Part shown: positions 10,362 to 61,971 of the stretch, piece after piece
Numbering within the stretch: position 1 is the stretch's first letter
Layout of the letters: every line of letters starts with the position of its first letter
DNA from: a virus
IMG/VR virus record: IMGVR_UViG_3300028596_000009
Coordinates: 64,001-128,000 of that record
DNA: 64,000 bases
Direction: 5' to 3' (one strand)
Notes under the pieces: model-generated
What the model was told of the DNA's origin: nothing
What the model saw: only the letters and a program-made list of their open reading frames with translations
The model's database searches: none
Program-made: the position numbers and the translations under genes

Positions 10362-10840
10362 GCCGCAGCGGATCGATAACCATCGCCTACGGCTTCTACC
10401 TGCGCAACTACGACGGCGAGTGGATGATCCAGGAGTCCGAGGACGACTGGGAGTACGAGTTTCCCTGGGTGCGGGGCGTTGAGGAGTGCCTGAGCGACGA
10501 CGGTGAGCTGGCCTTCTTCATCAAGTTCCTTCTCCGCCAGCTCCCTGAGCCGCCGAGTGAGAGCTTCCTCGCCGAGGGCGAGGGCGACTCGTACCACCTC
10601 AACAAGCTCCTGACCGAGCTGACCGGCCTGAGCCTGGAGGCTTTCGGCTTCGAGAACAGCAGGATCCTCCTGGCCTCCGGTCCCGTCGCCGAGCACTACA
10701 CCTGGGGCCCGGTCGACATCGACGAAGAGACCTTGAAGGTGTCCGACGCGGCCCGTGAGCGTTTGGAGTGGGTCCGGAGGGTTCTCGGGTGCACACCGGT
10801 GGACAAGCCCGGCATCAAGGTGATGGCGAGCTACGGATGA
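10358..10840 (+). CDS. Hypothetical, 'YG...PxW' paralog family
   Basis: ITIAYGFYL ... PGIKVMASYG. Confidence 0.75.
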   Translation: MSRSGSITIAYGFYLRNYDGEWMIQESEDDWEYEFPWVRGVEECLSDDGELAFFIKFLLRQLPEPPSESFLAEGEGDSYHLNKLLTELTGLSLEAFGFENSRILLASGPVAEHYTWGPVDIDEETLKVSDAARERLEWVRRVLGCTPVDKPGIKVMASYG

Positions 10841-11553
10841 ACGGCAAGGCGCACGCAGCGATAGGCGCCACCTCGCCGCTGGTCCTCATCACGGCCGGAG
10901 CGGACCTCGGTCAGCTTCTGGTCCTGGCGGGGATCGCGGCGGGGGCCGCCCTCGGGCCGGACATCGACCATCCGAACGCCACCGCCACGCGGGCTCTCGG
11001 AACCGCTGTCCACAAGTCGGTCCACACCCTGTCGAAAACAGTCCGCTGGGCAACTTCGACGAGGGCGGACCGGGCGGCGGCGGCACAGTGGGAATCGCTC
11101 GGAAGGGACGCCGATCACAGGGCTCTGACGCACACCGGTGTTTCGGCTCTGGTGGTCGGGACGGCCGGATTCTTCCTGTCACTTATCCCGTTCGGTTCGG
11201 TGGCTGTGGTAGCCCTGGGCGGGTGGCTGGTGGGGAACCTGGTGAAGCGGACCACGGCGCCGGTCGTGTGCATCGCGCTCACTGGACTGGCCGTCATGTG
11301 CAGCGTCCCGGCGTGGATGGCTGCTTCGGCTGTCGCGCTGGGCTGGCTGTCCCACGTCCTCGCGGACGCCTGCACGATGGGCGGGGTGCCGCTGATGTGG
11401 CCGATGCGGCGGGACGGGAAGCGGTGGAAGCACACGCGCTTCCTCGGAAAGATGCTTCGCTCGGGTGCTTCCTCCGAGTGGGCCGTGGCGATGGGATTCA
11501 TCGTCGTCCTGTCCTTCCCGTTCACAGTAGTGATGCTCACGCCCTACCGCTGA
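10837..11553 (+). CDS. YdjM-like membrane metal-dependent hydrolase
   Basis: MNGKAH, PDIDHP, HRALTH, SHVLADACT.GGVPLMWP; multiple TM segments. Confidence 0.88.
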   Translation: MNGKAHAAIGATSPLVLITAGADLGQLLVLAGIAAGAALGPDIDHPNATATRALGTAVHKSVHTLSKTVRWATSTRADRAAAAQWESLGRDADHRALTHTGVSALVVGTAGFFLSLIPFGSVAVVALGGWLVGNLVKRTTAPVVCIALTGLAVMCSVPAWMAASAVALGWLSHVLADACTMGGVPLMWPMRRDGKRWKHTRFLGKMLRSGASSEWAVAMGFIVVLSFPFTVVMLTPYR

Positions 11554-11620
11554 CCTGCGGAAACATCGAGGAAGCACCGAGGAAGCAGTTCAAGGAAACA
11601 CGGAAACGGAGAAGGAAACA
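11550..11620. repeat. GGAA(G/A)C(A/G) heptamer array 1
   Basis: Copies at 11559, 11570, 11581, 11594, 11602, 11614. Confidence 0.8.
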
Positions 11621-12039
11621 TGACGTCGTACGCGACGGTTCTGTACGGGTTCAAGATGGAGAACGACGGGTTCTTGACCGACGGCATCCACGATAAGTGC
11701 GAGCTGGGCATGGAGCTGAAGCAGGCGGTGGCCTTCCACCTCCGTGAGGAGCTGGGAACCATCATCGACGAGAAGCCCGTGAAGGTCGCCCGCTTCGACG
11801 ACCACGTGGAGCTGCTCCGCCAGGAGACCGGCCTGTGGGTCGAGCCGTGGGGCGAGAAGACGTGCTTCATCACCATGATCAAGATGTGCCACGTCGGCGG
11901 CGAGTTCGAGCCCAAGCGCATCCCGCTGAACACCCCTGGCCCCGGAACCCTCCACGAACTCCTGGGGGCGGCTTCGAAGGCGGGAATCGACATCGACGTT
12001 CAGGAGCCCGCCTGGTTCCTCCTGTCCGGCAGCGAGTGA
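11620..12039 (+). CDS. Hypothetical, 'YG...PxW' paralog family
   Basis: ATVLYGFKM ... PAWFLLS. Confidence 0.75.
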   Translation: MTSYATVLYGFKMENDGFLTDGIHDKCELGMELKQAVAFHLREELGTIIDEKPVKVARFDDHVELLRQETGLWVEPWGEKTCFITMIKMCHVGGEFEPKRIPLNTPGPGTLHELLGAASKAGIDIDVQEPAWFLLSGSE

Positions 12040-12050
12040 AGGAGACGGCG

Positions 12051-12440
12051 ATGAGCGGAAATGCGAGGGCGAAGCTGTTCTGCGGCACCGAGCTGGACTT
12101 CTGCACGACCGACGAGATGGACGAGGACTACGAGAGGGACTACTCGGACGTGGGCGTGTACGCCCGGCACATCGCAAGGTCGATGGACGAAGGTCCGCTC
12201 GCCGACAACTTCAACGAGGAGACCCTCGCGGAGCAGTACGGCCTGCGGGTTCTGATGGCCGACAACAGCCTCTTCCTGGCGATCGAGGACAGCGTGACCG
12301 AGGTCAGCGGCAACGGCATCCACGACGTGAACTCTCTGGCCTACTCGCGGCGGTACGAGGAGCTGCTGGGATTCGCCCTGCTGAGGATCGACAACTCGGA
12401 GACCCAGCCGAAGTGGCTGCTGGCCACCGACTGCAACTGA
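12051..12440 (+). CDS. Hypothetical, 'YG...PxW' paralog family
   Basis: AKLFCGTEL ... PKWLLAT. Confidence 0.75.
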   Translation: MSGNARAKLFCGTELDFCTTDEMDEDYERDYSDVGVYARHIARSMDEGPLADNFNEETLAEQYGLRVLMADNSLFLAIEDSVTEVSGNGIHDVNSLAYSRRYEELLGFALLRIDNSETQPKWLLATDCN

Positions 12441-12460
12441 CCCACGGAAAGGGGACAGAC

Positions 12461-12847
12461 ATGAAGGCGAAGTTCTTCTACGGAGTGAAGCTCGACCACA
12501 CCAACTACCCGAGCGGCGTCACGAAGCTGCTGGAGAAGTGGGGCAACCCCGAGGAGGCCCTGTCGATCCACCTGCTGAAGGAGGGCGGGTACACGATCGA
12601 CAACGAGTACGACGCGGAGGAGGAGCTGGCCAGGAAGACCGCGATCCGCGTGCTCGACCTCGGGGACTTCGGCACCTACCTGGCGCTGGAGAAGGCGATC
12701 ACGTCCCTCGACTCGCACGGAGTCACCAAGGCCGACATGGCGCCGACGGAGCTGGGAGAGCAGCTTCGGATGGAGGTCTATGCCAAGCGGCTCGGCACCA
12801 ACGCCCTCGGAAACACCGGCTGGAGCCTGTGGGGCGACCACGTGTGA
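12461..12847 (+). CDS. Hypothetical, 'YG...PxW' paralog family
   Basis: AKFFYGVKL ... TGWSLWG. Confidence 0.75.
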   Translation: MKAKFFYGVKLDHTNYPSGVTKLLEKWGNPEEALSIHLLKEGGYTIDNEYDAEEELARKTAIRVLDLGDFGTYLALEKAITSLDSHGVTKADMAPTELGEQLRMEVYAKRLGTNALGNTGWSLWGDHV

Positions 12848-12849
12848 AG

Positions 12850-12958
12850 TGCTTCCTGCCGCTTCCGTGGTGCTTCCTCCTCATCGGGGAAGCGCTGCGG
12901 TGGACAACAGGAAACACCTGCTGACCTGCGGAAACACAAGGAAGCAAGGGAGGAAGCA
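12850..12958. repeat. GGAA(G/A)C(A/G) heptamer array 2 (inverted then direct)
   Basis: Reverse copies 12850, 12860, 12871; forward copies 12888, 12910, 12930, 12940, 12952. Confidence 0.8.
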
Positions 12959-13182
12959 TGGAGGAACAGGAAGACTGTGCCGCTCTCGCGGAAGACTGGT
13001 TCCCCGAAGCCAGCGAGGAAGCACTGGAACTCGCGACCGAGACTCTCACCCACATCATGAACAACCCGTTCATGCTGGTCGACGACGCACAGATCGAACT
13101 TCTGATGAGGCTGGCCACCTTCGCCGACGCGGGCGAGAAGCTCGCCATGGAACTCATCAAGAGCCGGAAGGAAGCACCGTGA
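12958..13182 (+). CDS. Hypothetical acidic protein
   Basis: GGAGG RBS. Confidence 0.65.
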   Translation: MEEQEDCAALAEDWFPEASEEALELATETLTHIMNNPFMLVDDAQIELLMRLATFADAGEKLAMELIKSRKEAP

Positions 13183-13400
13183 ACCGCACTGAGATCGAGA
13201 ACCTCTTCACCTACCACCCGCCGTTCGGCAGCCAGCCCGACCGCTACATCGAGATCCGTCAGATGGCCTTGGAGTTCGCCCTCCGCCTGGAGGAACTGTG
13301 CCCGCCGTCCGACGAGCGCAAGGAAGCGATCCGGCACATCGACTACGCGGTGATGCGGGCCAACGCCTCCATCGCCCGGCACGAGACGGAGGAGCAGTGA
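13179..13400 (+). CDS. Acb2/Tad1-like helical-hairpin protein (putative signalling-nucleotide sponge)
   Basis: IENLFTYHPP...RY.EIR...EFA...EELCPPSDERKEAI..I..AVMRANASIAR, 73 aa. Confidence 0.7.
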   Translation: MNRTEIENLFTYHPPFGSQPDRYIEIRQMALEFALRLEELCPPSDERKEAIRHIDYAVMRANASIARHETEEQ

Positions 13401-13654
13401 GCGACCGCAAGTACGACACCTGGCACAACGTGTACGTCGGGGACCGGGGCTGGGCGATCGGAGGCCACCGGCCGGACTGCCCCACCCAGCCGGGCAACCC
13501 GGCGTCGTACAACTGCCTGACCTACGCCAACGTGCGGGACTACGCCCGGAACTACCCGGAACTCCAGGTCATCACCGACGGCGCCTACCGGATCCGCTAC
13601 TGGCACAGCGACGAGGAGCCCGGCGGCGGCTTCGAGATCGAGAGGATGGGCTGA
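13397..13654 (+). CDS. Hypothetical, paralog of next
   Basis: YD.WH...H..C...C...YPEL...G.YRIRYW. Confidence 0.75.
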   Translation: MSDRKYDTWHNVYVGDRGWAIGGHRPDCPTQPGNPASYNCLTYANVRDYARNYPELQVITDGAYRIRYWHSDEEPGGGFEIERMG

Positions 13655-13657
13655 GTC

Positions 13658-13936
13658 ATGCGCAGCTACGACGAGTGGCACGACCTGTATATCGACGGGG
13701 ACGGCGAGTGGAGCCTGACCCACCCCATCGCCAAGTGCCCGTCCTACCCCGACGGCCCTGAGCCTGGCGACACCGCCTACGGATGCGGCACGGAGGACGT
13801 CATGGGCGTCCACGGCACCGAGTACCCGGAGCTGGCCAAGCTCAAGGAGGGCCACTACCGGATCCGCTACTGGGGCGAGACGTCTCCGGTCGACGGGGAG
13901 TTCGAGGACGGCTTCGACGTGGAGGTGGCCGGGTGA
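13658..13936 (+). CDS. Hypothetical, paralog of previous
   Basis: YDEWH...H...C...C...YPEL...GHYRIRYW. Confidence 0.75.
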   Translation: MRSYDEWHDLYIDGDGEWSLTHPIAKCPSYPDGPEPGDTAYGCGTEDVMGVHGTEYPELAKLKEGHYRIRYWGETSPVDGEFEDGFDVEVAG

Positions 13937-14355
13937 AGCCGCTCGTCATCCTGGTCACCGGCTCCCGGGACTATACCGACCGGGCCTTCGTGTACGCGGC
14001 GCTCGGGCGGGCCCGCGAGTTCTACAGCGACCGCCGGATCATCGTCCGTCATGGGCTGGCCAAGGGTGCGGACACTCTGGCCAGCGACTGGGTGCAGTCC
14101 ATCGGGAACCACCGGCTGGTCGACGAGGATCCGCACGACCCGAACGACCACGGTCCGTGGCCTGCCGCCGGGATGATCCGAAACGCGCACATGATCCGGC
14201 TGGAACCGCGTCCCGACTGGTGCCTCGGCTTCGTCAACCGGTGCCGCAGGCCGCAGTGCAAGAACCGGCAGCTCCACGGATCGCATGGCGCTGAGGGGTG
14301 CCTGGAGATGGCCGAGAGGGCGCAGATCCCCTTCAAGGCATGGAGAACGTTCTGA
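13933..14355 (+). CDS. SLOG-superfamily (YspA/DUF2493-like) protein
   Basis: ILVTGSRD, HG.AKGAD, AAG.IRN..M, SHGA..C. Confidence 0.85.
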   Translation: MKPLVILVTGSRDYTDRAFVYAALGRAREFYSDRRIIVRHGLAKGADTLASDWVQSIGNHRLVDEDPHDPNDHGPWPAAGMIRNAHMIRLEPRPDWCLGFVNRCRRPQCKNRQLHGSHGAEGCLEMAERAQIPFKAWRTF

Positions 14356-14381
14356 TCTGAGCCTTCTGGAAGGAGAAGGGC

Positions 14382-15257
14382 ATGGAGCAGCTTGAGATTT
14401 TCTTCGAGGACAACGAGATTCTGAAGCAGTACGAGGCGATACCGGCGCCGCTTCAGCGCAAGCTGGAGACTCACTTCGCCACCCTCGTGGCGTGCGTGTC
14501 GATGAGGAAGACGCCGTTCCCCGCGCACCGCAACCGTGGTGTTTCCATCACGGTGGAGAACCCCAGGACCACGGTCGTCGTCCATGCGACGCGGGTGCAG
14601 GGCGGCGTGGAGATACTCGGTGTCATCGCCCGGGTCCGCACCCCGGACCAGCAGGAGGACTACCGGGCCGAGCGGGGCGTGGACTGCCCGTTCTGCGGCG
14701 CCGGGAAGGGCAACGCCTGCGTGGGGACCGACGGGCATGTCCTGACCTACGTCGGCACACGGAAAGACAAGCGACGTACCCACGCTGCCCGCCGCGAGCT
14801 GCACCAGACCGGCTCCGTGAAGAGGTTCAGCGGGGTCCAGAAGTCCATCCCGTTCATGACGGCTTCGGGGATCCGTAACGAGATGGCCGACGGCCGGGAC
14901 TCCGACTGGGCTGAGGTGTTTGACCAGTACAGGAACATGTACGACTCCGTCGAGATGGCCGACGGGCTGGTGGACGGCGCGATGCGGGTGATCGAGAAGC
15001 ATCACCCGGACCATCTGTGGTCGCCGTCGAAGTTCTGGAACCTGATGTGCGAGCACATCAGCGGCCCGCACGAGAATCCCGATCGGATGATCGTGACGAT
15101 GATGGGCAGGAGCCTGAGGCTCGGCATCATCACGCAGAAGCAGCACGACTACTACCTGCGCATGGGGGTCAGGGGCTACGCCGCGTTCGTCGGCCTGGAC
15201 TTCGCCCCGCACCCGCTCGGCGGCTTCGTCGCCGTCCGCAGCCTGAAGGGAATCTGA
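14382..15257 (+). CDS. Hypothetical with CPxCGA..G..C...H zinc finger
   Basis: CPFCGAGKGNAC...HAARR. Confidence 0.7.
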   Translation: MEQLEIFFEDNEILKQYEAIPAPLQRKLETHFATLVACVSMRKTPFPAHRNRGVSITVENPRTTVVVHATRVQGGVEILGVIARVRTPDQQEDYRAERGVDCPFCGAGKGNACVGTDGHVLTYVGTRKDKRRTHAARRELHQTGSVKRFSGVQKSIPFMTASGIRNEMADGRDSDWAEVFDQYRNMYDSVEMADGLVDGAMRVIEKHHPDHLWSPSKFWNLMCEHISGPHENPDRMIVTMMGRSLRLGIITQKQHDYYLRMGVRGYAAFVGLDFAPHPLGGFVAVRSLKGI

Positions 15258-15610
15258 TGGGGCTGAACATCGACGGCGTGACGAAGTGGAGCTACGGCGC
15301 CTTCAACACCTGGCGGGCACAGATCGCCCATCACGAGGGGTTCACGTTCTCCGAGATGGAAGGGTGCGGCGGCGTGCGCCCCTGGAGCGAGGTCGACTCC
15401 GTCCTGCTGCCCCTGCTGGACCACCCGGACGACGACGGTGAGCTGACCGCTGCGGAGTGCGCGCAGATGCACACCTACCTCCGTGAGGTGGTCGACAAGC
15501 TGTGGCCTTCCTGGCAGTACGACGGGCTGGGGGAACGGCAGCGGGGCCTGGAGCTGGCGGACGCGATGAAGGAGGCCGCCGAGGGCGGCTGGAGTCTGGA
15601 GTTCCAGTGA
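15257..15610 (+). CDS. Hypothetical protein
   Basis: TGATG coupling; WSYGAF, LLDHPDDDGEL. Confidence 0.75.
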   Translation: MGLNIDGVTKWSYGAFNTWRAQIAHHEGFTFSEMEGCGGVRPWSEVDSVLLPLLDHPDDDGELTAAECAQMHTYLREVVDKLWPSWQYDGLGERQRGLELADAMKEAAEGGWSLEFQ

Positions 15611-15705
15611 GAACTGCCCTCGTGACCGATGGCCTGTCGTCGAAGGATCTGATCGACCACCTGCGTGCAGCCGTGGGGGCTGCACAGGATGAGAGGAGGG
15701 GAACG

Positions 15706-15975
15706 ATGAGCACCGAGATGATGGTCTACGTGGCGGTGCGCTGCCCGCAGGCGCCGACGGCGGACCAGTTGTCCGCGCTGACTCGGAACATCAACGGGGA
15801 GATACGCCACAGTGAGCACACCGGGCTGCTGGAGATGTACTGGCGTGTGCCGTCCGAGCGGCTTCTGGGCGTCGCGTCCACGGTGCCGAAGCTGGTGTCG
15901 CAGACGCTGACGACGGCCTTCAGGGACGAGCCGGAGGTCGTCTCCCTGAACGTCATTTCCACAGCGAAGCAGTAG
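15706..15975 (+). CDS. Hypothetical protein
   Basis: AGGAGG RBS. Confidence 0.6.
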   Translation: MSTEMMVYVAVRCPQAPTADQLSALTRNINGEIRHSEHTGLLEMYWRVPSERLLGVASTVPKLVSQTLTTAFRDEPEVVSLNVISTAKQ

Positions 15976-16046
15976 GGAAGCAAGGAAGCGGGTGCTTCCG
16001 GGGAAACAGGAAGTACCCACAGGAAGCGGGGAAACCCGCAGATCAG
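15976..16046. repeat. GGAA(G/A)C(A/G) heptamer array 3
   Basis: Exact or near copies at 15976, 15984, 15993 (rev), 16002, 16009, 16022, 16030. Confidence 0.75.
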
Positions 16047-16056
16047 GAGGCATGTG

Positions 16057-16670
16057 ATGGCGACCGGACCCGAGCACTACGCCGAGGCCGAGAAGCTGCT
16101 GGAAGCGGAGAAGACCCTCTCCGCGAAGAACACCGACCTGCGCAACCTGACGGTCAACAAGGCCCTCGCGCATGCGGTGCTGGCCCTGGCCGCCGCGTCG
16201 GCGCCGACCTCGACGACCCAGGCGGAGAAGTGGTCGCGGGTGATCCGGTGAGCGCACTGGCCAAGGGGACCCGGGCGCTGAGCCATGTGTTCGCCAAGGC
16301 CCCTGCCGGTACCTACGTGCTGTTCGCCGTGGACCGGGACGACTCCGGCTCCGGACGGGGAGCCCTGGATGAGATATCCCTGGCCCGGGACGGCAGGAAC
16401 ATCCTGGTCAGGAACGGCTTCAGGGGCGTCGCCGAGACCGTGGGCAAGTCCATGGACAGCCTGAACGGCGGCTACCTGGTGCTGACCGGCGGCGACTTCA
16501 CCTCCGAGAACAACCCGCGTACGTCCTGGGTCTGGCAGGTGCTGGCGGGGTCTCTCCTCCCGCTTTCCGGCGACGCGGCCTGGGACGTGCTCCAGCACTA
16601 CCCGACGGCGCAGGGGTACGTGTGGCTGTCGAAGGAGACCAGCTACGAGGACGCATGGGCTACGACATAG
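16057..16670 (+). other. Two coupled hypothetical CDS (16057-16251; 16248-16670)
   Basis: RBS and GTGA overlap. Confidence 0.7.
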
Positions 16671-16917
16671 ACCCGGACCGTCATCTCCTCGCACTGGCCT
16701 GCGGATTGGCCACGGGGATGGTGTGCGTCGTTGCCTGGATCGTGGTGGAACTCCTGCGTTCTTAACCATTGCGAAGAAGCGTGCAAACGCCCGGATGGAA
16801 GCGGCCCGCCTCTGCATTTCCGGTCGAGGAAGCAGGGTTTCCTGGCAGGAAGCGGCGTGGGAAACTGATTCCATCCGGGCTTTTGCTTGGAAGTAACTCT
16901 CTGGAAAGGAGGAACTG

Positions 16918-17442
16918 GTGAAGAAAATGAAAGCAAGGCTGGGCTGGATTCCCAGTGGCGCCAAGGGGTCCACCGAGGAACTGTTGAAGTGGATCGACAG
17001 CGGCCAGGACAAGGAACTGTCCAGGAAGAAGCTGACCTTCTGTGCGTGCGTTGCTGGCGGTGCCGTGCTGCTCGTCGTGCAGGTTCCCGTGGTCGGCCCC
17101 ACCGCGATTGTGCTGGGCGCGCTGGCGGTATTCGCCTGGTTCGACAAGACCCCGCAGGAGGAGATGAGGATGCGGTTCTCGGACTTCAGCACGGAGTCCT
17201 TCGTCATCGGCGACGAGCAGGTGCCGGGCATGGAGGTGCTCTGGCGCTACATCCAGGCCCATCCCGGCAAGACCCCGGCCGAGCTGGCCGAGTACCTGTC
17301 GCAGGCGCCCGGTTCCCCCACGGTCAGCCCGCGCCTGATGGCCGGTGTGATGACCGAGCTGGGCATCCCGATCCCGCGCCAGGAGCAGCCCCAGGCCCCC
17401 GTCGAGAAGCCCGCCGAGGAGCCGGAGCCGGTCAAGGAGTAG
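16918..17442 (+). CDS. Membrane protein with two TM helices and C-terminal winged-HTH-like segment
   Basis: Hydrophobic hairpin then LWRYIQAHPGKTPAELAEYL...LGIP. Confidence 0.6.
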   Translation: MKKMKARLGWIPSGAKGSTEELLKWIDSGQDKELSRKKLTFCACVAGGAVLLVVQVPVVGPTAIVLGALAVFAWFDKTPQEEMRMRFSDFSTESFVIGDEQVPGMEVLWRYIQAHPGKTPAELAEYLSQAPGSPTVSPRLMAGVMTELGIPIPRQEQPQAPVEKPAEEPEPVKE

Positions 17443-17636
17443 CTTCCGGCGCCTCTCTGTCCAATAGATCTGTCTATCCACTCCCCTCCTCTCGGCGGGT
17501 GTGCCCCCTCAAAACAAGATGCGCTGGTCAGCGCTGTGACGTGGGACGAGACCCGGGAAAAGCCGAGAAGTGGGGGACAGGATGGACAGATCTAGTGGGT
17601 CTGTTTAGTGGACAGACTTGCGGTAGCCTTTTCCGC

Positions 17637-17861
17637 ATGGATGAGGAGACGAAATCTGAGATCCGGCGCCGTAGTTTCGCGGCCTGGTACCGCTTCTACG
17701 AAGGAACCGAGGGCGGGCCGGTCGACTCGGTCGAGGTGGTCGAGGTGAACGACAAGTACTACGCGGCCGTCCGGCATGCCGGAAAGCTGCGGGCGGTCTT
17801 CCGGGTCCGCAACGACCTGAAGCTGAAGCGCCTGTTCAAGTGGCCCAAGGTGATCGTGTGA
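17637..17861 (+). CDS. Small hypothetical protein, probably leaderless
   Basis: TAGCCT -10-like box just before ATG; AVFRVRNDLKLKRL.KWP. Confidence 0.65.
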   Translation: MDEETKSEIRRRSFAAWYRFYEGTEGGPVDSVEVVEVNDKYYAAVRHAGKLRAVFRVRNDLKLKRLFKWPKVIV

Positions 17862-17940
17862 CTGTCACATGGAGCTTGTTGTGCCGGTCTGATCCCGTGA
17901 GGTCGGCATATAGGTTCCCGTTAAGAGCGCTGGGGAGTTC

Positions 17941-18579
17941 GTGATGGACGAGGACATCGATTACGGGGACGAAGATGACCTGACGGGTGATTCGGAGGAG
18001 GCCGTTGCGCGGCCTCTCACTGAGACGGAACTCGCTGAGGCCGAAGAGAGGAACCTGGTACGCAGGAAAGTCGAGATAGAGGCCATAAGAGGCTTCCCGT
18101 GGGCCTCCTGCCCCGTCTGGCAGGAAGACATCCCGCCGGAAGACCGTGATCCTCCGTGGCGAATTCCAGGACAGCGTGCTTCCGGGTACTTCCGGATCGA
18201 TGAGATCGAGCGCTTCCTGCTTCTCGGGGACCACCCGCTTAACGAAAGCAACGAGTAGAAGGAAGAAGCAGTGGGTCTGGGGAATGCAGTTCTTCGTATG
18301 TTCGGCTGGAACGTCAAGGTCGGTGCTTCCGGCGATGTGGAGCAGGTCGCGGACGGCCTTTCGGGGAGCGTGGTCGTGCGGCCCAACGGCAGAGGCGGCA
18401 CGAAGGTCGAGGTGAAGTCGGACTCGGGCAAGTGGGTGCTGGACCACTTCGAGTGCGAGAGGTGCGGCTTCGACCGCTACGGCACGTCTTGCACGCGCAC
18501 GAAGGACCGGGGTTACCGGGTGACCTTCACCTGCACGGAGTGCGGGCACGTCGAGCAGTACTTCCAGCGGGAGGTCTGA
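17941..18579 (+). other. Two hypothetical CDS (17941-18258; 18271-18579 with CxxC..CxxC zinc ribbon)
   Basis: ORF track, codon bias. Confidence 0.6.
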
Positions 18580-18649
18580 CGGGGCAAAACACGACAGAGC
18601 GTCAGGTAGGTCCGGGCGCACGACACGCCCCACCGCACGACTGAGAAGA

Positions 18650-18850
18650 TCCGCTTCTGAGAATTTTCATCGGCTCGTTTCCACCGCTTCCCCCGGGTGC
18701 TTCCATCTCTGACCTGGGGGTTTCGTGTTTCCCAGGAAGTGCTTCCAGCCATGAGGCACCCTGTTTCCACCACGTGCTTCCTGATGGTCCGTTGACAAGG
18801 AAGCGCCGTCGCTTAGATGATGGCCAAGTCCAAACGGACTGGAAACGGAG
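18650..18850. repeat. Heptamer array 4, mostly reverse orientation
   Basis: YG(C/T)TTCC at about 18676, 18685, 18698, 18726, 18740, 18762, 18775; forward at 18799 and 18841. Confidence 0.75.
18792..18827 (+). promoter_or_regulatory. Promoter overlapped by operator-like motif
   Basis: TTGACA at 18792; TTAGATGATGGCCAA at 18813-18827. Confidence 0.65.
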
Positions 18851-18857
18851 ACAAGAC

Positions 18858-19940
18858 ATGATGAAGTTCTGGAAGTCGGGTGAGGCGGCGAAGACGCCCG
18901 CCAAGCCCACGACGCGCAAGAAGCAGCAGCCCGAGGTGGAAGCGAGGATGAACGTGGGAGCGTTCCTCCTGACCCCACTCGGCGGCTTCCTGTCCGGTTG
19001 CTCGCTGCTGTGGACCGCCTTCTCGGTCACCGATCTCCTGGGCATCGGGCCGATGGGTCTGACCGTCGCGCTGACGCTCGACCTGATCTGGCTCGTCATC
19101 ATGTACGCCACGCACAAGGAGATCCCGTTCTATGGAAGCCTGACCGCCACTCAGGCCATCGGATGGATCTTCCTCGTCGTCGTCGTCGTGGCCCTCGCCT
19201 GGCACGGCGTCAGCCTGGAGGGCAAGGAGATCCTCGGGTACACGGTGAGCAGGAACGCTTCGCACGCCATGGCCATCATCGGTCCGATCCTCCCGCTGGG
19301 TTCGAAGATCACCTGGGTTCTCGTGAGCGCCGCGTACAAGAAGGCGGAGCAAGAGGCGAACAACCCGGAGGGCTACACCGAGGAGCAGCTCATCGCTCTG
19401 GAGGAGATGGAGCGCGAGTCGAAGTTCGAGGAGGCCGAAGCGGAGAAGGCCCTGGAGGCCAAGCGCCGCAAGCACAAGCTGGAGCTGGAGGAGATCCGGA
19501 TGGGCGGCGAGAAGACCCGCGCCCGCAACGACGTCAACTTCGAGCTGGAGCGGGCGCGCATCGAGCAGGCCACCAAGCTCCGCAACGAGATGCCGGTGGA
19601 CCTGGTCCGCATCATCCAGGGCGAGGTCGAGCAGCCGGTCCTCCCGGCGCAGGCGCAGGCCCCGGCCCTCATGCCGGTCCGTACGATTCCGGCGGCGAAG
19701 GAGAGGGAGCGGACCGAGGTCACCGTCTCCATCACCGACCTGAACGAGGACCAGCGCAAGGCCCGGACGCTCGTGGTTGAGTACCTCCTGCTCAAGCAGA
19801 AGGACCCGACCTACAGCCAGCGGAAGTTCGCCGCCGACAAGGGCATCTCCAGCGGCTGGCTCAACAAGCTGATCACCCGGTACGGCCCGTCCATCGAGAA
19901 CGACGAACTGAGCGACGGCGACGAGGCCATCACCGGCTGA
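18858..19940 (+). CDS. SpdB-like membrane protein (4 TM + coiled coil + C-terminal HTH)
   Basis: LLWTAFSVTDLL...ALTLDLIW, AWHG, GPILPL..K..W; charged coiled coil; SQRKFAADKGISSGWLNKL HTH. Confidence 0.6.
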   Translation: MMKFWKSGEAAKTPAKPTTRKKQQPEVEARMNVGAFLLTPLGGFLSGCSLLWTAFSVTDLLGIGPMGLTVALTLDLIWLVIMYATHKEIPFYGSLTATQAIGWIFLVVVVVALAWHGVSLEGKEILGYTVSRNASHAMAIIGPILPLGSKITWVLVSAAYKKAEQEANNPEGYTEEQLIALEEMERESKFEEAEAEKALEAKRRKHKLELEEIRMGGEKTRARNDVNFELERARIEQATKLRNEMPVDLVRIIQGEVEQPVLPAQAQAPALMPVRTIPAAKERERTEVTVSITDLNEDQRKARTLVVEYLLLKQKDPTYSQRKFAADKGISSGWLNKLITRYGPSIENDELSDGDEAITG

Positions 19941-20028
19941 CCTTCGCGCGGTACCACCACGGGCCCCTGCGGGGCGTCACTCGGCACACCGCAGGGGCCC
20001 TTCCATGTCCAAGGAGAGGAAGAGAACG

Positions 20029-21093
20029 ATGAGCGACAACTGGCTCGAAGACATCATGCGGGGCAACGCGGCCACCCCCGAGGCGGCGTTTGAGAAGAAG
20101 GCCACGGCGACGGTTCCCAGGCCGCGTCCGTCCGGGATGCCGACCCACCCGAACGAGTGGGGCTCCGGCGGCAAGGTGAACCTGCTTCCGGGTGAGGAGG
20201 AAGCGCCTGCTTCCCCTGCTTCCGATGCCGCTTCCTCGGTGTCGGCCAACACCCCCGAAGAGGACGGTGAGCTGCGGAAGCGCAAGGAAGCGAAGAAGAA
20301 GCGCCCGCTTCCCCCGATGCCGAAGCAGCCCCCGACCGTCCACGAGAACATCGCCTCCGGCGAGCCGGAGAAGGAAGCGGAAGGGGAAGCGGGAAGCGCC
20401 GGGGAAGCGGACGGCGAGGAAGCACAGGAAGCGGTCGACGAGGAGACGAAGGGCCGCATCCGGTCCGCTCTCGCCAAGGCCCGTACGGTGACCGGTTCGG
20501 CGAAGGAGAAGGTCTCCGAGAAGACCAAGCCGGTCAAGGACAAGGTCGTCAATGAGATCGACCCGAAGAAGGCGCAGAAGTGGTCGCTGCTGTGGGCCGG
20601 TGCCGCTTCGTGGGTGATCTCGCCCGGTACGCTCGCTGCCCTCTACGACCGGGCGGTGATGCTGTTCGGCTCGTGGACGGAGAGCTTCCCGAGGGCCGAG
20701 TTCCTCAACTCCGGCGGCATGCCGCATGAGTGGGATCTGCTCCAGGGTCCCGCGTGGTGGGTTCGCAACACCGTCCAGGACGCGTTCGAGGCCGGTGTGA
20801 CGAGCGACCTCCTTGCCGCGCTTGTCGTGGGCGTGGTTCCGACGGTCGCGCTCATGCGCGTGAACCACCGGATCGTCAGGTTCTTCCTGGTGGTGGGAGT
20901 TGCGTACTTCGTCGGCTTCCAGTGGTTCCCGCAGTGGTGGGAGGTCTACATGGCGACCTTGGCCGCCTGTGCGTACTATGGCTGGACGATGGCCAACCGG
21001 ATTCAGTCCGCGTTTCTGGCCTGTATGTTCCGTGTTCCCGTGGCGGCGATTGTCTCGGGATCCATCCTCTACTCTCCGGGGGCGATTTTCTGA
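20029..21093 (+). CDS. Membrane protein with long disordered acidic N-terminus
   Basis: Several TM segments, C-terminal RVPVAAIV..SILY.PG. Confidence 0.75.
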   Translation: MSDNWLEDIMRGNAATPEAAFEKKATATVPRPRPSGMPTHPNEWGSGGKVNLLPGEEEAPASPASDAASSVSANTPEEDGELRKRKEAKKKRPLPPMPKQPPTVHENIASGEPEKEAEGEAGSAGEADGEEAQEAVDEETKGRIRSALAKARTVTGSAKEKVSEKTKPVKDKVVNEIDPKKAQKWSLLWAGAASWVISPGTLAALYDRAVMLFGSWTESFPRAEFLNSGGMPHEWDLLQGPAWWVRNTVQDAFEAGVTSDLLAALVVGVVPTVALMRVNHRIVRFFLVVGVAYFVGFQWFPQWWEVYMATLAACAYYGWTMANRIQSAFLACMFRVPVAAIVSGSILYSPGAIF

Positions 21094-21635
21094 TGGCGCT
21101 GGATTCGATCGTGGCTGCGGCACCGGTCGTGCAGATGCAGTCCAACCCGAACAGTTGGTTCGGAAACGCTGGTTCCGCCTTCGTCGGCGTCGCGTTCCTG
21201 CTGTCCGCTTTCATGCTGGCCAGGTCCGACGAGGCGAAGGGGATCAAGCCCAAGGGTCCGTGGGGACCGTGGCTCGCGAAGAAGCTCGACCACGTCAAGT
21301 GGGACTGGAAGTCCCTGATGTCGTGTCTGTGGGGCTTCTTCGGTACCACCGCCCTGCTGGGTTCCGTCGGTGTCCTCGGCAACCTGTCCCGCTGGTTCCA
21401 GGGACTCTTCTCCTGGATCAAGGACATCGAGTTCATCGCCAACGTCGGCATGGCCGGTGTGTGCCTCTTCATCCTGCTCATGGTGTGGAGGCGGCAGAAC
21501 GACAACATCAGCGACGTGCGCTGGGGCTGCGTCATGGGCCTCGCGTTCCCGCTCGGCGGCGGCATCTGGCTTCAGGCATCCCTCGCCGTCGGCAACATGC
21601 TGGTCAACATCATGAACGGGATCCCCAGGGCATGA
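21093..21635 (+). CDS. Multi-pass membrane protein
   Basis: TGATG coupling; about 4 TM segments. Confidence 0.75.
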   Translation: MALDSIVAAAPVVQMQSNPNSWFGNAGSAFVGVAFLLSAFMLARSDEAKGIKPKGPWGPWLAKKLDHVKWDWKSLMSCLWGFFGTTALLGSVGVLGNLSRWFQGLFSWIKDIEFIANVGMAGVCLFILLMVWRRQNDNISDVRWGCVMGLAFPLGGGIWLQASLAVGNMLVNIMNGIPRA

Positions 21636-22129
21636 ACATGAGGGCGGGTGGCTACTTCGTCCTTGCCTTCTTAACTCTCGGCGCCGGTCAGGCCGTGTTC
21701 GGATTCTTCGACGAAGTCTCCGGCGCCGAGGGTGGGGCAGGGATCACAGTCTCCAGTGGAGTTGGGGGAGCAGCCTCCGACAAGCAACTGAACGCGTGGA
21801 TCAATGACGCGCTCAAGGTCATGAAGCAGGAAGGGATCCCTGGAAGCTTCAACGGAATCAAGCGCAACGTCATTCGTGAATCGGGCGGTAATCCGACCAT
21901 CGTGAATGATTGGGACATCAACGCCAAGAACGGAACACCTTCAAAGGGTCTCCTTCAGGTAATCCAGCCAACCTTCAACGCCTATAAGCTTCCGCAGTCG
22001 GCATACGACCGGGCCGGAGTCAAGGCAAACGCGAACAGCTTGACTGACCCCATTGCCAACATTGTGACCGCGTGCAACTACGCAGCGGCTCGGTACGGCT
22101 CCATGGACAACGTCAACGGTCCCTACTGA
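21632..22129 (+). CDS. Secreted or membrane-anchored lytic transglycosylase (SLT)
   Basis: RESGGNP..VNDWDINAKNGTPSKGLLQVIQPTF, DPIANI...NYA..RYG; N-terminal hydrophobic segment. Confidence 0.92.
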   Translation: MNMRAGGYFVLAFLTLGAGQAVFGFFDEVSGAEGGAGITVSSGVGGAASDKQLNAWINDALKVMKQEGIPGSFNGIKRNVIRESGGNPTIVNDWDINAKNGTPSKGLLQVIQPTFNAYKLPQSAYDRAGVKANANSLTDPIANIVTACNYAAARYGSMDNVNGPY

Positions 22130-22142
22130 TCAAGGAGAGGCG

Positions 22143-22886
22143 ATGCCTCCAGCTCCCATTCCCGAAGCCAGGGCGCGAGCCCTGATGATCAACACCGGTC
22201 TGACCCCGCGAGTTCCCTATCCGGGATCGAACCGTCCCTGGCCCTGCCTGTGCATGACTTGTGGGTCGGAGTGCTCTCCCCGCTACAACAGCATCCAGCA
22301 AGGGCAGGGAGGTTGTGGGAAATGCGGTCGATCCGCCAAGAGGGAGACCGAGCTTCTGTCTCTGGGTCCAGCGGCGATAGATCGGATGGTTTCTCTGGGT
22401 CTGCGGCCGGAAGAGCCGTACTTGCATGCCGAAACGCCATGGCTGTGTACCTGTCTGAAGTGTGGCAACAGAATTCGCGTCTCCTACAACAACTCGGTAC
22501 ACCGTGATCGGGGGTGTCCGTACTGTCACGAGACGAAGCATAATCTCGGAACTCCAGCGCAGGTCTACCTGATAGGGAACTACGGGCTGGGTGCTGGAAA
22601 AATAGGCGTCACTCATGGAGGGTTTCGATCCGGCGCCTTCTCACGGCGTGGATGGAAGGTCGTCAACACGGTCGAACTTGCCAGGCGGATTGACTGCTAC
22701 AGGATCGAGAAGGACTTCATCCACTGGTTGCACACAGAGGGAGCTTTCCCCTTCCTGTCTCAGAGTCAAATGGCGGGCCTGGACGGTTACACTGAAACAT
22801 TTTCGACAGAGATGATCAACCTAGATCAGGCCGATCGGAAACTTCGTTCTTTGCTGAACAACCTGGGACTTCCTTGTCCCTCGTAG
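22143..22886 (+). CDS. Putative homing endonuclease: two zinc-ribbon repeats + GIY-YIG/T5orf172-like domain
   Basis: Twice GL.P..PY....PW.C.C..CG...GC..C; VYLI...KIGVT...IEK...GYTETF; lower GC3. Confidence 0.7.
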   Translation: MPPAPIPEARARALMINTGLTPRVPYPGSNRPWPCLCMTCGSECSPRYNSIQQGQGGCGKCGRSAKRETELLSLGPAAIDRMVSLGLRPEEPYLHAETPWLCTCLKCGNRIRVSYNNSVHRDRGCPYCHETKHNLGTPAQVYLIGNYGLGAGKIGVTHGGFRSGAFSRRGWKVVNTVELARRIDCYRIEKDFIHWLHTEGAFPFLSQSQMAGLDGYTETFSTEMINLDQADRKLRSLLNNLGLPCPS

Positions 22887-44237: not shown

Positions 44238-44963
44238 ATGAAGAAGAGCACGGCGAAGAAGTCCACGGTCGTCATATCCATGCTGGGCGCCCTGCTGATG
44301 ACGGCGGCCCCGGCCCAGGCTCTGACGCCCGGACAGGTGAGCAGCGGTACCGGCTGGACGCTCGGCTACTCCGACCAGGTCACCTCGATCGCCCCGGTGA
44401 CCTACACGATCACCTTCGACTCGGTCGCCGCCCGCACCCGCCTCAAGCCGTACATGCAGGCCATCGCCACCCACACGCAGACCCTGACGCCGGGCACGAC
44501 GTTCGTCGTCTCGGACACCATCGCCCCGCAGACGTACCCCGGCTGCCAGACCACGCGGACCATCTCGCTGTCCCTGTCGTACCGGCCGACCGGCCAGGCG
44601 GGCATGGCGTGGGGCGGCGCCTGCTACATGCTCAGCGACCACAGCCTGCACTCCGGCCTCATGCGCATCAACACCGAGTGGTGGTACCCGAACTGGTTCT
44701 CGTCCAACGCCACCACGAACGAGCAGTGGATCAAGAACGCGGTCATCCACGAGTTCGGCCACGCCATCGGCCTCGGCCACCCGAACAAGGATCTCGACAA
44801 GGACGGTGTCGTCGAGGCCCACGAGTGCGTGAAGAACACCGACGGCTGGCTCCCCGTCCTGTGCTCCCCGAACGGCGGCAGCCGCAACGCGAACGCGGGC
44901 AAGTGGACGTTCCTGGAGCAGGCGGGCGTGAAGATGCTGACCACCAACTACCAGTACCGCTGA
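44238..44963 (+). CDS. Secreted zinc metalloprotease (metzincin)
   Basis: Signal peptide ending PAQA; HEFGHAIGLGH. Confidence 0.88.
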   Translation: MKKSTAKKSTVVISMLGALLMTAAPAQALTPGQVSSGTGWTLGYSDQVTSIAPVTYTITFDSVAARTRLKPYMQAIATHTQTLTPGTTFVVSDTIAPQTYPGCQTTRTISLSLSYRPTGQAGMAWGGACYMLSDHSLHSGLMRINTEWWYPNWFSSNATTNEQWIKNAVIHEFGHAIGLGHPNKDLDKDGVVEAHECVKNTDGWLPVLCSPNGGSRNANAGKWTFLEQAGVKMLTTNYQYR

Positions 44964-57781: not shown

Positions 57782-60700
57782 CTAAATGTCGTAGGAACCA
57801 CGGAAGCAAAGGAACTGAACCGCCTCCGTATCCGCGTTCTGCCTCCAGGAGAACCCGGAAGAGGAAAGTGTATAGTAATTCGCATACATCGGTGTCGTCG
57901 TACTGACAGCATTCGGGCTCACCATCGGACGGTACGACCAACCGTTATTCAGCGACCACGTCACTGTGCCGTTTCGCTGGGTGGCTACCGTAGCTACCGC
58001 GATAGCCCGGAAAACCCCGTAGTTGTCGTTCAGCTCCGAGCCGTGAGGCATGGTCCCCTCAAGCAGAAGCTCGTTGCCGGTGTCGCCCCAACTGATGCTG
58101 GCAACCACCGAACTGTCGACCCACTCCTTGTAGATGGCCATACCGCCACCGGTCTTGAAGTTCAGGTCGACGCGGCCCGTGCTGTTCCGGGTGATCTCCG
58201 GCCCCACGATGCCGAACGAGTACGGCGTCCACCCTCCCGTACCGGCGCCGTCGGCGGCGAAGATGTTGGTGTCCTGGTCGCCGGGGCCCGGGGTGTCGAT
58301 ACGGATACCGGCCTGGCCCAGGTAGTTGGCGCTCTGGCTGATGACGACTCGCGGCACACCGGAGGCCGGAACCGTGGTCTGGTAGACCGAGCCGGTGATC
58401 GTGTGCTTGACCGTCAGTGCGTCCGCCTTGATCTGAGTCGCCGTCACCGAGTCGGCAGCCAGCAGCGGCGTGTTGATCATGCCGTCGCCGATGTAGACCG
58501 ACGACTCCTGCCAGATCGAGAACTCGGACAGCCGCACCACGTTTCCGGCCGGGACGTTCGTCCACTGCGTCCAACCGTAAAGGGCGACAGCAGCCGTGTT
58601 CGCCGGAGGGCTGACGCCCGCCCCGGTGCTGGTGGTGATGATGGCGTCCTGGTTCGGGGCGGTGTAGTTCGTCGTACCGATGATGGCCAGGTTGCTGATC
58701 TGGTTTCCCGCGCGGTCGAAGAACTTGGCGAAGAGCTGAACGGCCAGCGTCGCACCCACCGGCCATGCGGCAGCCGCCGGGATCTCCACACGCATACGGG
58801 CCTTCAGGCCGCCTACCACCTGAGATCCGTTACGGGTGAGCTGCTGAAGCTGTCCGATGTTCACACCGGTGAGGGTGTTGCCCAGCGGAAGCGACAGGAT
58901 CGTGTTGTTCAGCAGAGAGAAACGGGCGGTCTGCGTGGTGGTCAGCGGCCCCTTCGTGCCGACGGCCTTGCCGCCCGAGACCGACCACGTGATGTCCGAC
59001 GAGGAAGTGCCTGAGAGCGCCGAGGTGGCCACACGGAAGGCGTTCAGGTCCGGGTCTCGGAGCTGCGGGTCGGCAACCAGGTTGTTCGTCTCACCGATCG
59101 ACAGGCGGTCGACCGTCAGCGAGTACGCCTTGATCTTCTCGGCGGTGATCGTACCGGCGGCAATGTTGTTCGCCGTGATCGAGTTGGCCTCGATGTCCGG
59201 GCCGACAACGCCGACGACAACGATGCTGGAGACGTCGGACACCGTGGTCGAGTCGTTGCCCGCCGTGTCGTAGGCGGTGAACCGGAAGTACAGGGTGTCG
59301 CCGATGCCCCAGTTGAGCTGGGCGTCCTCACCGGTGACGATAACCGCGCTGCCCGGCTCGAAGATCTCTCCGATCCTGGTGAACGGACCGGCGCCCGACA
59401 ACGACATCTCGACCTGGATCGAGGCAAACCGTGCGGGCATCGGCTGACCGGCCGAGTCGTTGCCGTCCCACTCGACCTTCACCGTGGACAGGCGGCTGGA
59501 CAGCACAGGGTCCGACGGCTTGGGCATGCCCGTGGTGGGCCACGCCATGACGGCCGAGACCTCGTTGCTGTACTCGCCGACACGACCGCCCAGGCCGATG
59601 GCCGCCACACCGAAGTAGTACGTCTCGCCGGAGTCGAGGTTGTTGATGTGGCCGACGATCCTGTTGCCCGGCGTCGCGTTCAGCGGGTGGCGGACCGAGT
59701 TGCTCAGCGACATGTCCTCGGGCGACGAAGCGGGCCGGGCATAGAAGCTGTACCTGGCCATGCCCATGCTGTTGCCGTCGACATCGACGAAGACCGGGTC
59801 GAACTCGACCCTCGCCCGCGCCTTCGGCTCACCGGCCGGATTGAAGTACCCCGTGGACGTGACCACGAGGTTCCCCGGGATGCTCGGCTCCTGGTTGGTC
59901 GGGTCCGGCTGGGGGATGGGGATCGGGTTGGTGCCGCCGCCACCGCCAGCTCCAGGCCCTCCCTGTCCCGTGACACGGTTGACCCACCGCTCGTTGCGCA
60001 TCTGGCGTTCGAGGAAGCGGTCGTTCAGGGTGAGGTGGATGACCATGCCGGTCGGCTCGGTGCCTGCCAGCGTGATCTGGTACACCCGAAGAGGTTCGAG
60101 CTGATTGCCGTTCTCGGTGCGCCCTCGGATCACGTCACCGGGGCGGTAGTCGTAGAAGGGCACAGGAAGGCCCTCACGCCAGGTGATCTGCTTCGTGATC
60201 ATCATGCGCGGCTGGCTGCGGGACGACAGCACATAGGCGCCCACCTGAGCCATGGTGGAAAGGTCGGAAACACCACCGGCCTGCATGAGATCCTCCCACT
60301 CGCCCCACGGCGGATCGGGAGAAAGCGGCGGCATCTCCACCACCCGGCTGATGCCCTTGTCGCCCTGCACAATGATCGTGCGGGTGTAGTCCTCCAGTGT
60401 CCGGTCCACCGGCTCTTCGAGGTGCGAGGCGGTCGGGTGCAGGATGACACCGCCGCTGTCTATCGCGAGGTTCCGGCGCAGCTCGGTGTTCGGGCGGTAC
60501 AACTCCAGGGTGCGGCCCAGCATGCGCCAGTCGGCCAGCCCCTGAGAAGTGAGGGCGTCGAGGATCGACCAGGCGTCCTGCCCGTACTCGTACTCGACGG
60601 TGTAGGTGTCGTCCCAGGGAATGCCTGCGGAGTCCTCGGTGGGGCCGAAGTTGTACGCCAGCCCGGGAATGTTGCCCCGGAGCTTCGACTCCTCGATCAG

Positions 60701-61117: not shown

Positions 61118-61118
61118 C

Positions 61119-61958
61119 TCACACCACCGCTGCTCGGGCTCGAATCACCACAGGTCCGGCTGTTTCCGTGGAGACGATCTGAACCTGAGAAGTCACCGTC
61201 AAACTGGATCCGCCCGACCTGGAGGTAATCGTAAACGGACCGAGATCGGTGAACACCATTCGACTGGAAACGTTGGTCCCGGTGAAGGTCCACACAGGGG
61301 AAGTGACGATGTGTGCTATCAGGTTGTAGGGGTCCATCAGAAGGTACTGTCCGGACGGAACCGTCAGACTTCCCTTGGTCCAGTTGACCGCCGTGTTGGA
61401 CACCACGTCCCTGACCGTGATCGACCCGACCGGTCCCGGCACACGGATCAGGGAATCGACGATGGGGGCCGTGGTGGAAAGCCCCACGTTGGACGTCGTG
61501 GTGTTGTTGATGGCGAAGCCCTGCTCGACATAGGGGCCACGCCAGGAGCCGCCGGGAATGTTGAAGATGATCTGCACATCGGCACGGTTGGTCGAGCAGA
61601 AGAAGTCCGGCGAAGTCGTCGACACGAGCTGCCCGTCGGCCGTCTCGGTGTTCGTCCCACGGACCCTGGTCAGTTCGACCGGCTGATTGTTGCCCATGCC
61701 GAACGCGCCGGTCAGGCTGTTCCACAGACCCCGCAGATCGTTCGCGTCGTCGCCCTGCACACGGACCTTCAGACCCAGCGTGATGGCCGACATCGGATCG
61801 TCCCACTTCGGGATCTGGTAATGCGTAGCAGGAATCTCCACGACCGCCCGGCGCGGAGCCAGGGCAGGGGCGTACTCCGTCTCCTTCAGGAGCCAGATGC
61901 CCCGCGTCTGCGTCGTGCCGGGGATCGTAAAGCCGTTCAGGCCGTACTGCGTAGACAC
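61119..61958 (-). CDS. Distal tail (Dit)-like minor tail protein
   Basis: Directly after tape measure; 279 aa, beta-rich. Confidence 0.75.
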   Translation of the reverse strand: MSTQYGLNGFTIPGTTQTRGIWLLKETEYAPALAPRRAVVEIPATHYQIPKWDDPMSAITLGLKVRVQGDDANDLRGLWNSLTGAFGMGNNQPVELTRVRGTNTETADGQLVSTTSPDFFCSTNRADVQIIFNIPGGSWRGPYVEQGFAINNTTTSNVGLSTTAPIVDSLIRVPGPVGSITVRDVVSNTAVNWTKGSLTVPSGQYLLMDPYNLIAHIVTSPVWTFTGTNVSSRMVFTDLGPFTITSRSGGSSLTVTSQVQIVSTETAGPVVIRARAAVV

Positions 61959-61971
61959 GGCTCTCCTTTCC

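Follow-up and report, generated by a model that had tools for sequence, protein, structure and literature searches.

The spd-like locus

The DNA examined here, called the window, is a stretch of 64,000 nucleotides of the linear IMG/VR virus record IMGVR_UViG_3300028596_000009, of which it forms bases 64001–128000. The whole record is 166,823 bp long, has a G+C content of ~64% and is estimated to be 88% complete. Between positions 18677 and 22129 of the window lies a set of four + strand genes, termed A to D, for a predicted relative of the plasmid spread protein SpdB, two further membrane proteins and a lytic transglycosylase with an SLT domain. The genes were delimited by calling based on the G+C content of third codon positions (GC3), by listing of open reading frames (ORFs) and by reading of the sequence. 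A sequence-only reading of the window had proposed an operon akin to the 'spread' genes of Streptomyces conjugative plasmids at this place. Positions given below are those of the window unless the record is named.

The regulatory region (18677–18857, + strand) contains an array of GGAARC/GYTTCC motifs (18686–18804), a –35 hexamer TTGACA (18792–18797), a –10 hexamer GATGAT (18816–18821) and a ribosome-binding site GGAGA before the ATG of gene A. The promoter, TTGACA-N18-GATGAT at 18792–18821, matches the consensus at 10 of 12 positions and is the sole sigma-70-like site between 18.3 and 23.1 kb. Taken alone it is not above chance, with one site seen and 0.5 expected, but the hexamers and ~200 nt upstream of them are conserved block by block in four metagenomic relatives (L008, L009, L020 and L021) whose A proteins are 50–69% identical. 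One copy of the motif sits between the –35 and –10 hexamers.

Gene A (18858–19940, + strand) encodes a protein of 360 aa assigned to the SpdB family, with a basic N-terminus, four transmembrane (TM) segments, a long coiled-coil-like helix, a disordered linker and a three-helix bundle resembling a helix-turn-helix (HTH). It is followed on the same strand by B (20029–21093; 354 aa), of an orphan polytopic membrane family, by C (21093–21635; 180 aa), from a small orphan family of helical integral membrane proteins, and by D (21632–22129; 165 aa), in which an N-terminal membrane anchor or signal is joined through a Gly-rich linker to the SLT domain. The stop codon of B shares 1 nt with the start codon of C (TGATG), and the end of C shares 4 nt with the beginning of D (ATGA). 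The overlaps are identical in the relatives, in agreement with the translational coupling claimed for the last three genes.

Every element of the operon was found where the sequence-only reading had put it, including the location of the set far from and opposite in orientation to the tail genes, which occupy 57782–63990 on the – strand. Two amendments were made to the layout. An in-frame ATG at 20005 upstream of B lacks a ribosome-binding site; since the ATG at 20029 has one (AAGGAG) and the proteins of the relatives begin MSDW, 20029 is more likely to be the start. In addition, a stem-loop with a perfect 12-bp GC-rich stem (19961–20000, + strand; –37.7 kcal/mol) parts A from B, and therefore A may be a partly separate transcription unit. 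The stem-loop could serve as an attenuator, as a terminator without a U-tract or as an RNA-stability element.

Gene A is related to SpdB of plasmid pIJ101

The sequence of pIJ101 SpdB was taken from the plasmid record for the homology test. Alignment of the A family profile to it with hhalign gave a probability of 92.6% and an E-value of 4.7e-7 over 139 columns, and BLASTP aligned residues 66–155 of A with residues 39–115 of SpdB (E = 0.039). The residues invariant in the A family (D75, W78, G102, W103, H116, L145, P146, K150 and W153) all fall on identical residues of pIJ101 SpdB. The precomputed Pfam 38.1 annotation of A (P0001) includes a match to PF27080, named SpdB_N by the Atlas, the score of which is not readable. 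The similarity to Spd proteins on which the earlier proposal hinged is found in gene A. Judged from these comparisons, A is a real SpdB relative with an N-terminal membrane domain homologous to that of pIJ101 SpdB, and a plasmid (tra/spd) ancestry of the gene is well supported.

Other searches gave little. The local Pfam, PHROG and NCBIfam libraries contained nothing significant, tblastn of pIJ101 SpdB against phages gave no match and a pattern scan for A in IMG/VR viral contigs found no relatives. Word-based protein searches with A, B and C recovered close phage relatives only.

An AlphaFold2 (AF2) model of A contains the four TM helices at residues 27–168, a 70-residue helix at 175–244 (predicted local distance difference test, pLDDT, 80–90), the disordered linker and a three-helix bundle at 297–347 (pLDDT 83–87). 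Together with the four hydrophobic segments in the sequence, the model agrees with the four TM helices and the coiled coil ascribed earlier to the first gene product. The HTH label is weak. Foldseek comparison of the A model with the PDB gave nothing at E ≤ 1e-3, and the top rows for the bundle, which were the HTH domains of Lrp/AsnC, DeoR and sigma-4 proteins, had E-values of about 1. No match to HTH_SpdB_C (PF27079) is recorded for P0001. Because the N-terminus is basic and is followed by four TM helices, both ends of A would be expected in the cytoplasm, as a DNA-binding role needs.

The membrane partners B and C

The earlier description of two further multi-TM proteins was confirmed, with 4–5 TM segments in B and a helical membrane bundle in the AF2 model of C (predicted template modelling score, pTM, 0.72). 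The N-terminal half of B is variable, charged and disordered. The C-terminal half, with the TM segments and many Trp, Pro and Gly residues, is highly conserved, with 75 invariant positions among 7 sequences of this membrane domain. Pattern scans for B found no relatives in bacterial genomes (185,579 species genomes) or in IMG/VR, and an Atlas search gave no usable neighbour.

The C family is small, an exhaustive profile search finding only 24 clusters among 1.84 billion representatives. A structure search with C against the PDB gave a best Z of 6.6, to the membrane domain of a transhydrogenase, which is within noise for helical bundles, and the nearest shapes in the Atlas are actinobacterial proteins of 136–138 aa without names (TM-scores 0.54/0.67). 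C matches Phage_holin_2 (PF23778) at 20.9 bits and E = 4e-4, below the cut-off of 32, and just 2 of 11 members of the C family reach E ≤ 0.01 with this model, all of them sub-threshold. An identification of C as a Phage_holin_2 holin is not supported, the match being sub-threshold and not common to the family, and the late operon contains a separate holin (phrog_443). No similarity was seen between B and C, and the suggestion that they are themselves Spd proteins was not upheld, as neither has detectable similarity to the named ones.

Gene D encodes an anchored lytic transglycosylase

D scores 30.3 bits against Pfam SLT (PF01464; cut-off 21.3), which confirms the SLT protein of the sequence-only reading, and has one N-terminal hydrophobic segment. 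It is the single SLT (PF01464) in the whole genome. The catalytic Glu83-Ser84 pair is intact, and E83-S84, G106 and Q109 are invariant across D-type proteins. The hydrophobic segment, with the consensus M..RAGG.FVL.FL..GA.QAV.GF, is conserved in all D-type proteins, also in the versions of the BM-cluster phages and L014 described below, whose SLT domain is of a different subtype. Because the anchor is kept though the SLT subtype differs, the N-terminus of D is suggested to make a specific membrane interaction and not to be a disposable signal peptide.

The closest PHROGs to D are SLT segments of tape-measure proteins. D was considered as a virion (tape-measure) lysin and this was rejected, since D is provided with an anchor, its gene belongs to the early block and the tape measure of this phage carries no SLT. 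Considered together as a known defence system, A to D were likewise set aside, having no PADLOC match at E ≤ 0.01.

The SLT domain closest to D in cultured phages is the C-terminus of gp40 of Streptomyces phage Shady (L011, 4536–5312), at 61% identity. This 258-aa hypothetical protein is encoded among the replication genes of 45-kb Streptomyces phages, and from its location SLT genes may occur repeatedly in Streptomyces phages away from the virion and lysis blocks.

The gene set is conserved as a module in large actinophages

The order A-B-C-SLT is kept in the four metagenomic relatives named above. For far relatives, hidden Markov models were built from alignments of A, B and C, and all three membrane proteins were detected there. 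In L012 the set comprises A, B, C and two SLT genes; in L014 it reads A, GntR, B, C, SLT, M23, NlpC/P60.

The closest cultured relatives of the record are the BM-cluster Streptomyces phages (184–200 kb; 25–40% protein identity), and because of this the host is taken to be Streptomyces-like. Megablast of the module locus against phages gave no match. The BM members Satis, JustBecause, Quantum, Kela and Frankenweenie have a homologue of A, then several genes including a – strand GntR+UTRA regulator, and then B, C, SLT and NlpC/P60. The common genes stand in the same order as in the record, in the same helicase-flanked region with a YdjM gene, and the N-terminal anchor of the SLT protein is conserved. 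The BM version differs in that its module proteins are only 25–32% identical to those described here and in the additional NlpC/P60 gene, the internal GntR/UTRA regulator and an FtsK-like translocase. In GenBank the BM module genes are labelled hypothetical, membrane protein or 'glycosyltransferase'. One 'glycosyltransferase', JustBecause gp94 (L002, 7688–8326), is an SLT protein by Pfam (1.6e-9) and is followed by a gene for an NlpC/P60 peptidase; another, Quantum gp96 (L003, 7692–8324), aligns with it. The YdjM-family membrane protein of the window (10837–11553, + strand; Pfam 3.9e-15) has a counterpart near the module in every relative looked at (BM phages, L008, L009, L012, L014 and L021).

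A link to a plasmid transfer gene was found in contig_144796 of ENA ERZ25039576 (160 kb; L013/L017/L018). Here A, B and C are divergent from a gene for a Tra protein of 757 aa which has 44% identity with Tra of pIJ101 across 390 aa (E = 1e-94) and passes the FtsK_SpoIIIE threshold. A WhiB gene is also present on this contig, besides tra, divergent from the SpdB-B-C genes. Since the contig consists of long runs of small co-directional genes and has many genes in common with the record (SNF2 and UvrD helicases, an Amidase_2 lysin and several small ORFs), it has the appearance of a large phage related to this one, although in the 30 kb of it that were read no structural genes came to light. The Tra protein of this type matches proteins annotated 'FtsK-like DNA translocase' in 20 cultured Streptomyces phages, every BM phage included, and in BM phages this gene lies ~20 kb from the module. 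FtsK-like genes of Streptomyces phages have been annotated without a tested role (PMC11536984, PMC13587820).

The phage-plasmid pSAM1 carries a homologue of A (34% identity over 212 aa). Its operon lies downstream of a GntR gene and is divergent from it. Such an arrangement is the typical layout of Streptomyces transfer regions. The pSAM1 operon differs from the present one in having no homologues of B, C or the SLT gene. For B and C a plasmid ancestry is supported through linkage only.

The presence of a kor-like GntR repressor embedded in the module of BM phages and L014 bears on another function, in which the proteins would change the envelope in a 'kil'-like manner, either stopping growth and development, an effect that plasmid kil/spd genes have in pocks, or blocking superinfecting phages and plasmids. 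In its favour, the promoter in the window appears regulated, with the motif copy between –35 and –10, and unregulated spd/kil genes slow the growth of recipients (PMC4447253). Against such host takeover or exclusion, there is no match to known defence or exclusion families (PADLOC), and why exclusion would need up to three wall hydrolases is not obvious. We regard this explanation as quite improbable. A GntR gene is not found in or beside 18.5–22.2 kb, where no – strand gene is present; the whole genome was not searched for GntR.

Motif arrays upstream of A and inside B

The motif seen in the regulatory region is over-represented in the window, with 100 copies of GGAAGC compared with 42 ± 6 expected, and its density over the whole genome peaks at 72–86 kb of the record with the maximum in gene B. 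The field of GGAAGC/GGAARC sites extends from 11417 to 21993, with clusters at 11417–11586, 12851–12957, 15976–16027, 16797–16853, 18686–18804 and 20184–20432. The clusters between 11.4 and 18.8 kb are intergenic, the copies being often spaced by about 10–11 bp and occurring in both orientations. The last cluster lies inside the 5′ half of gene B and has 15 copies of GGAAGC/GCTTCC.

The motif exists in two variants, GGAAGC in the phage of the window and L020, and GGAAAC at the same places in L008, L021 and L009; mixing of the two was seen in no phage compared. The codons of gene B switch with the variant, Glu-Ala becoming Glu-Thr and Ala-Ser becoming Val-Ser. Because the variant switches in concert in intergenic and coding arrays, the comparison argues for selection of GGAARCG(G) at the DNA level, as a candidate protein-binding site. 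The clusters in front of A and within B are perhaps the mark of a cis site. The reader of the arrays would be either the HTH of A or another regulator.

These arrays could also suggest that the genome is tethered to the membrane. In phi29 replicating DNA is tethered to the membrane by protein p16.7, and in a similar way A might anchor the genome for replication or segregation via its HTH and the arrays, B, C and D then having an unrelated envelope role. The predicted architecture of A (TM segments, long helix and C-terminal three-helix bundle), the helicase, primase and polymerase genes around the module, the concentration of the motifs in the 14 kb around the locus, where they reach their genome-wide peak, and their concerted switching in intergenic and coding arrays all fit such a role. 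However, A is homologous to a conjugative spread protein and is co-conserved over large distances with B, C and wall hydrolases, a pattern for which tethering gives no reason. Furthermore, the arrays are absent from L012 and L013 despite the presence of the module, and they are perhaps simply operators of another regulator. Tethering of this kind is considered rather unlikely.

The module and the lysis genes

In the record, + strand genes extend to about 120 kb and include those for Ro60, SNF2 and UvrD-type helicases, a primase-helicase and a DNA polymerase. They are followed by a – strand virion block, in which the tail proteins, the tape measure, the portal and the terminase are encoded. This late block also has the genes for a holin (phrog_443, 7e-13) and for a canonical endolysin (Amidase_2; phrog_880, 1.6e-62), which flank the terminase and portal genes. 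Because these separate genes are present, the module is not the main lysis cassette, and a holin/endolysin function, which the sequence-only reading had set against its own proposal, is weakened to that extent.

The late genes, at 146986–152075 of the record and outside the window, are in the order endolysin, large terminase (1054 aa), holin, portal. Residues 359–510 of the terminase match a 'thymidylate synthase' PHROG and may be an intein or an inserted domain.

An accessory part in lysis was weighed separately. A, B or C would form holin- or pinholin-like pores and D would be a muralytic enzyme of the signal-arrest-release type, helping the Amidase_2 endolysin when infection ends. The module does resemble cassettes of a holin and a signal-anchored endolysin in that small membrane proteins stand beside a muralytic enzyme with an N-terminal hydrophobic segment. 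In D this segment contains Gly and Ala and is followed by SLT, C has the sub-threshold Phage_holin_2 similarity given above and M23 and NlpC/P60 hydrolases are added in relatives. In addition, SpdB2 of plasmid pSVH1 releases T7 lysozyme in E. coli (PMC4447253). The module differs from such cassettes in its location outside the late region, among replication genes and behind a host-type promoter, in the existence of the separate canonical holin and endolysin beside the terminase and portal genes, and in the score of C, which is under the holin threshold and whose holin similarity touches only the 2 members of its family. Moreover B and C, with dozens of invariant residues, are far more conserved than is usual for holins. 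An accessory lysis or wall-weakening cassette is considered unlikely.

A possible cross-wall-penetrating complex

Because the hyphae of Streptomyces are divided by cross-walls, a phage lysing a single compartment loses the remainder of the filament. Plasmids overcome the same obstacle by means of TraB and Spd proteins. The reading we favour, tentatively and at somewhat less than an even chance, is that the module, although carried by a phage, derives from the tra/spd 'spread' system of Streptomyces plasmids and forms a complex that penetrates cross-walls before lysis. A host sigma-70-type promoter in the early/middle gene block would transcribe the module. The SpdB-like protein A would insert with both ends in the cytoplasm, oligomerise via its long helix and offer its C-terminal HTH to DNA, possibly through the GGAARCG sites. 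B and C would assist as integral membrane proteins, their amounts kept in a fixed ratio to D by translational coupling, and D would be anchored at the outer face of the membrane and cut glycan strands locally. Together A to D would constitute a complex penetrating membrane and peptidoglycan, most plausibly at hyphal cross-walls. Phage DNA or other contents of the cytoplasm could pass through it to neighbouring compartments ahead of late lysis, so that the zone of infection would grow. A membrane-anchored SLT enzyme, with M23 or NlpC/P60 in some relatives, fits the need for local opening of the peptidoglycan.

Experiments on pSVH1 have defined SpdB2 as an oligomeric membrane protein which forms pores, binds to DNA and to peptidoglycan and is required if the plasmid is to spread within the mycelium and form pocks (PMC4447253). 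That phage homologues of SpdB2, in phiC31 and VWB, help phage DNA to spread was already speculated in 2015 (PMC4447253), so neither actinophage SpdB2 homologues nor the idea of spreading is new. The A-family and pIJ101 SpdB profiles found nothing in phiC31, and the homologue reported in the literature was not recovered with these queries. The present system resembles pIJ101 SpdB and pSVH1 SpdB2 (PF27080) in the homologous 4-TM domain, where the invariant positions (D, W, GW, H and LP..K..W) coincide, in a helix of A that may be of the oligomerisation type and a C-terminus that may be of the DNA-binding type, and in the further small membrane-protein genes which follow with overlapping stops and starts. 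The differences are also clear. The coiled coil of SpdB2 is reported to be N-terminal (PMC4447253) whereas the long helix of A comes after the TM segments, neither B nor C is related to the named Spd proteins, the set includes a dedicated SLT enzyme while none is found on pIJ101, and the genes lie in a virulent-looking phage of ~167 kb without a detected TraB, integrase or ParB. Phages of the pZL12/pSAM1 type, which are Streptomyces plasmid-phages, likewise carry phage structural and transfer genes together. pSAM1 is a circular plasmid prophage of about 90 kb, unlike the present phage, in which no plasmid-maintenance or integration genes were found among the families searched.

Several observations weigh against the favoured reading. 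The first concerns the motor, as plasmid spreading requires TraB. The sequence-only reading had seen no TraB or FtsK in the window, which is correct, and extending the search to the 166.8-kb record, estimated to be 88% complete, also found no FtsK/TraB motor (PF01580). Using tblastn with pIJ101 Tra and with the Tra of L013 against the record gave nothing either. Since the record is only 88% complete by estimate, absence of the motor is not proven. Tyrosine recombinase, serine recombinase and ParB were also not detectable in the record, and nothing in the sequence therefore points to a motor or to life as a temperate phage or plasmid. A complex penetrating the cross-wall before lysis is the most economical mechanism for the module, but the case for its use in moving DNA is weakened by the missing motor. 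Secondly, the SpdB_N (PF27080) match is unmarked in L013 and marked weak in L009, L012, L014 and L020, P0008 has no match, and the HTH assignment of the C-terminus of A is weak. Thirdly, B and C have no similarity to pIJ101 KilB and their status as 'Spd' proteins comes by linkage only. Lastly, SpdB2 is holin-like in E. coli, so that the module might act in lysis after all (PMC4447253).

A broader version of the idea is that large Streptomyces phages, namely this clade, the BM phages and the L012–L014 types, have domesticated the Streptomyces conjugation apparatus. It would consist of SpdB with two new membrane partners and of wall hydrolases held by an anchor, to which some of the phages add TraB and a Kor-type GntR repressor. 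Replicating phage genomes would then be moved through cross-walls, giving virion-free spread from cell to cell within a multicellular bacterium, with the arrays as a clt-like site read by the SpdB HTH; where TraB is missing, a host or plasmid translocase or passive passage would have to take its place. This is a doubtful extension and we give it a low probability.

What is new here is the definition of a conserved SpdB-B-C-hydrolase module, its recognition in cultured BM phages under uninformative or wrong annotation, its linkage, on a phage-like contig related to the record, with a tra gene of the pIJ101 type, and the motif arrays whose variants change together. Since the module is present in cultured, genetically tractable BM phages, the old speculation has become directly testable. 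If that speculation is true, the module would represent a new mode of phage propagation in multicellular bacteria and a case in which conjugation machinery was taken over by phages. Should it prove false, the module would remain an unexplained and strongly conserved envelope system of large actinophages.

Other features of the window

Directly after the SLT gene is an ORF of 247 aa (22143–22886, + strand) with several CxxC pairs and a lower G+C content, for which local Pfam, NCBIfam and PADLOC gave no match. It is not found at this position in L008, L009, L020 and L021, which have small ORFs there instead, and it may be a mobile insertion. L021 encodes a Phage_zn_bind_8 protein of 247 aa elsewhere. 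Further downstream, a protein of 241 aa (44238–44963, + strand) has an N-terminal hydrophobic segment and weak matches to zincin metalloproteases (Peptidase_M8 and Reprolysin-like, E about 1e-3), and may be a secreted protease.

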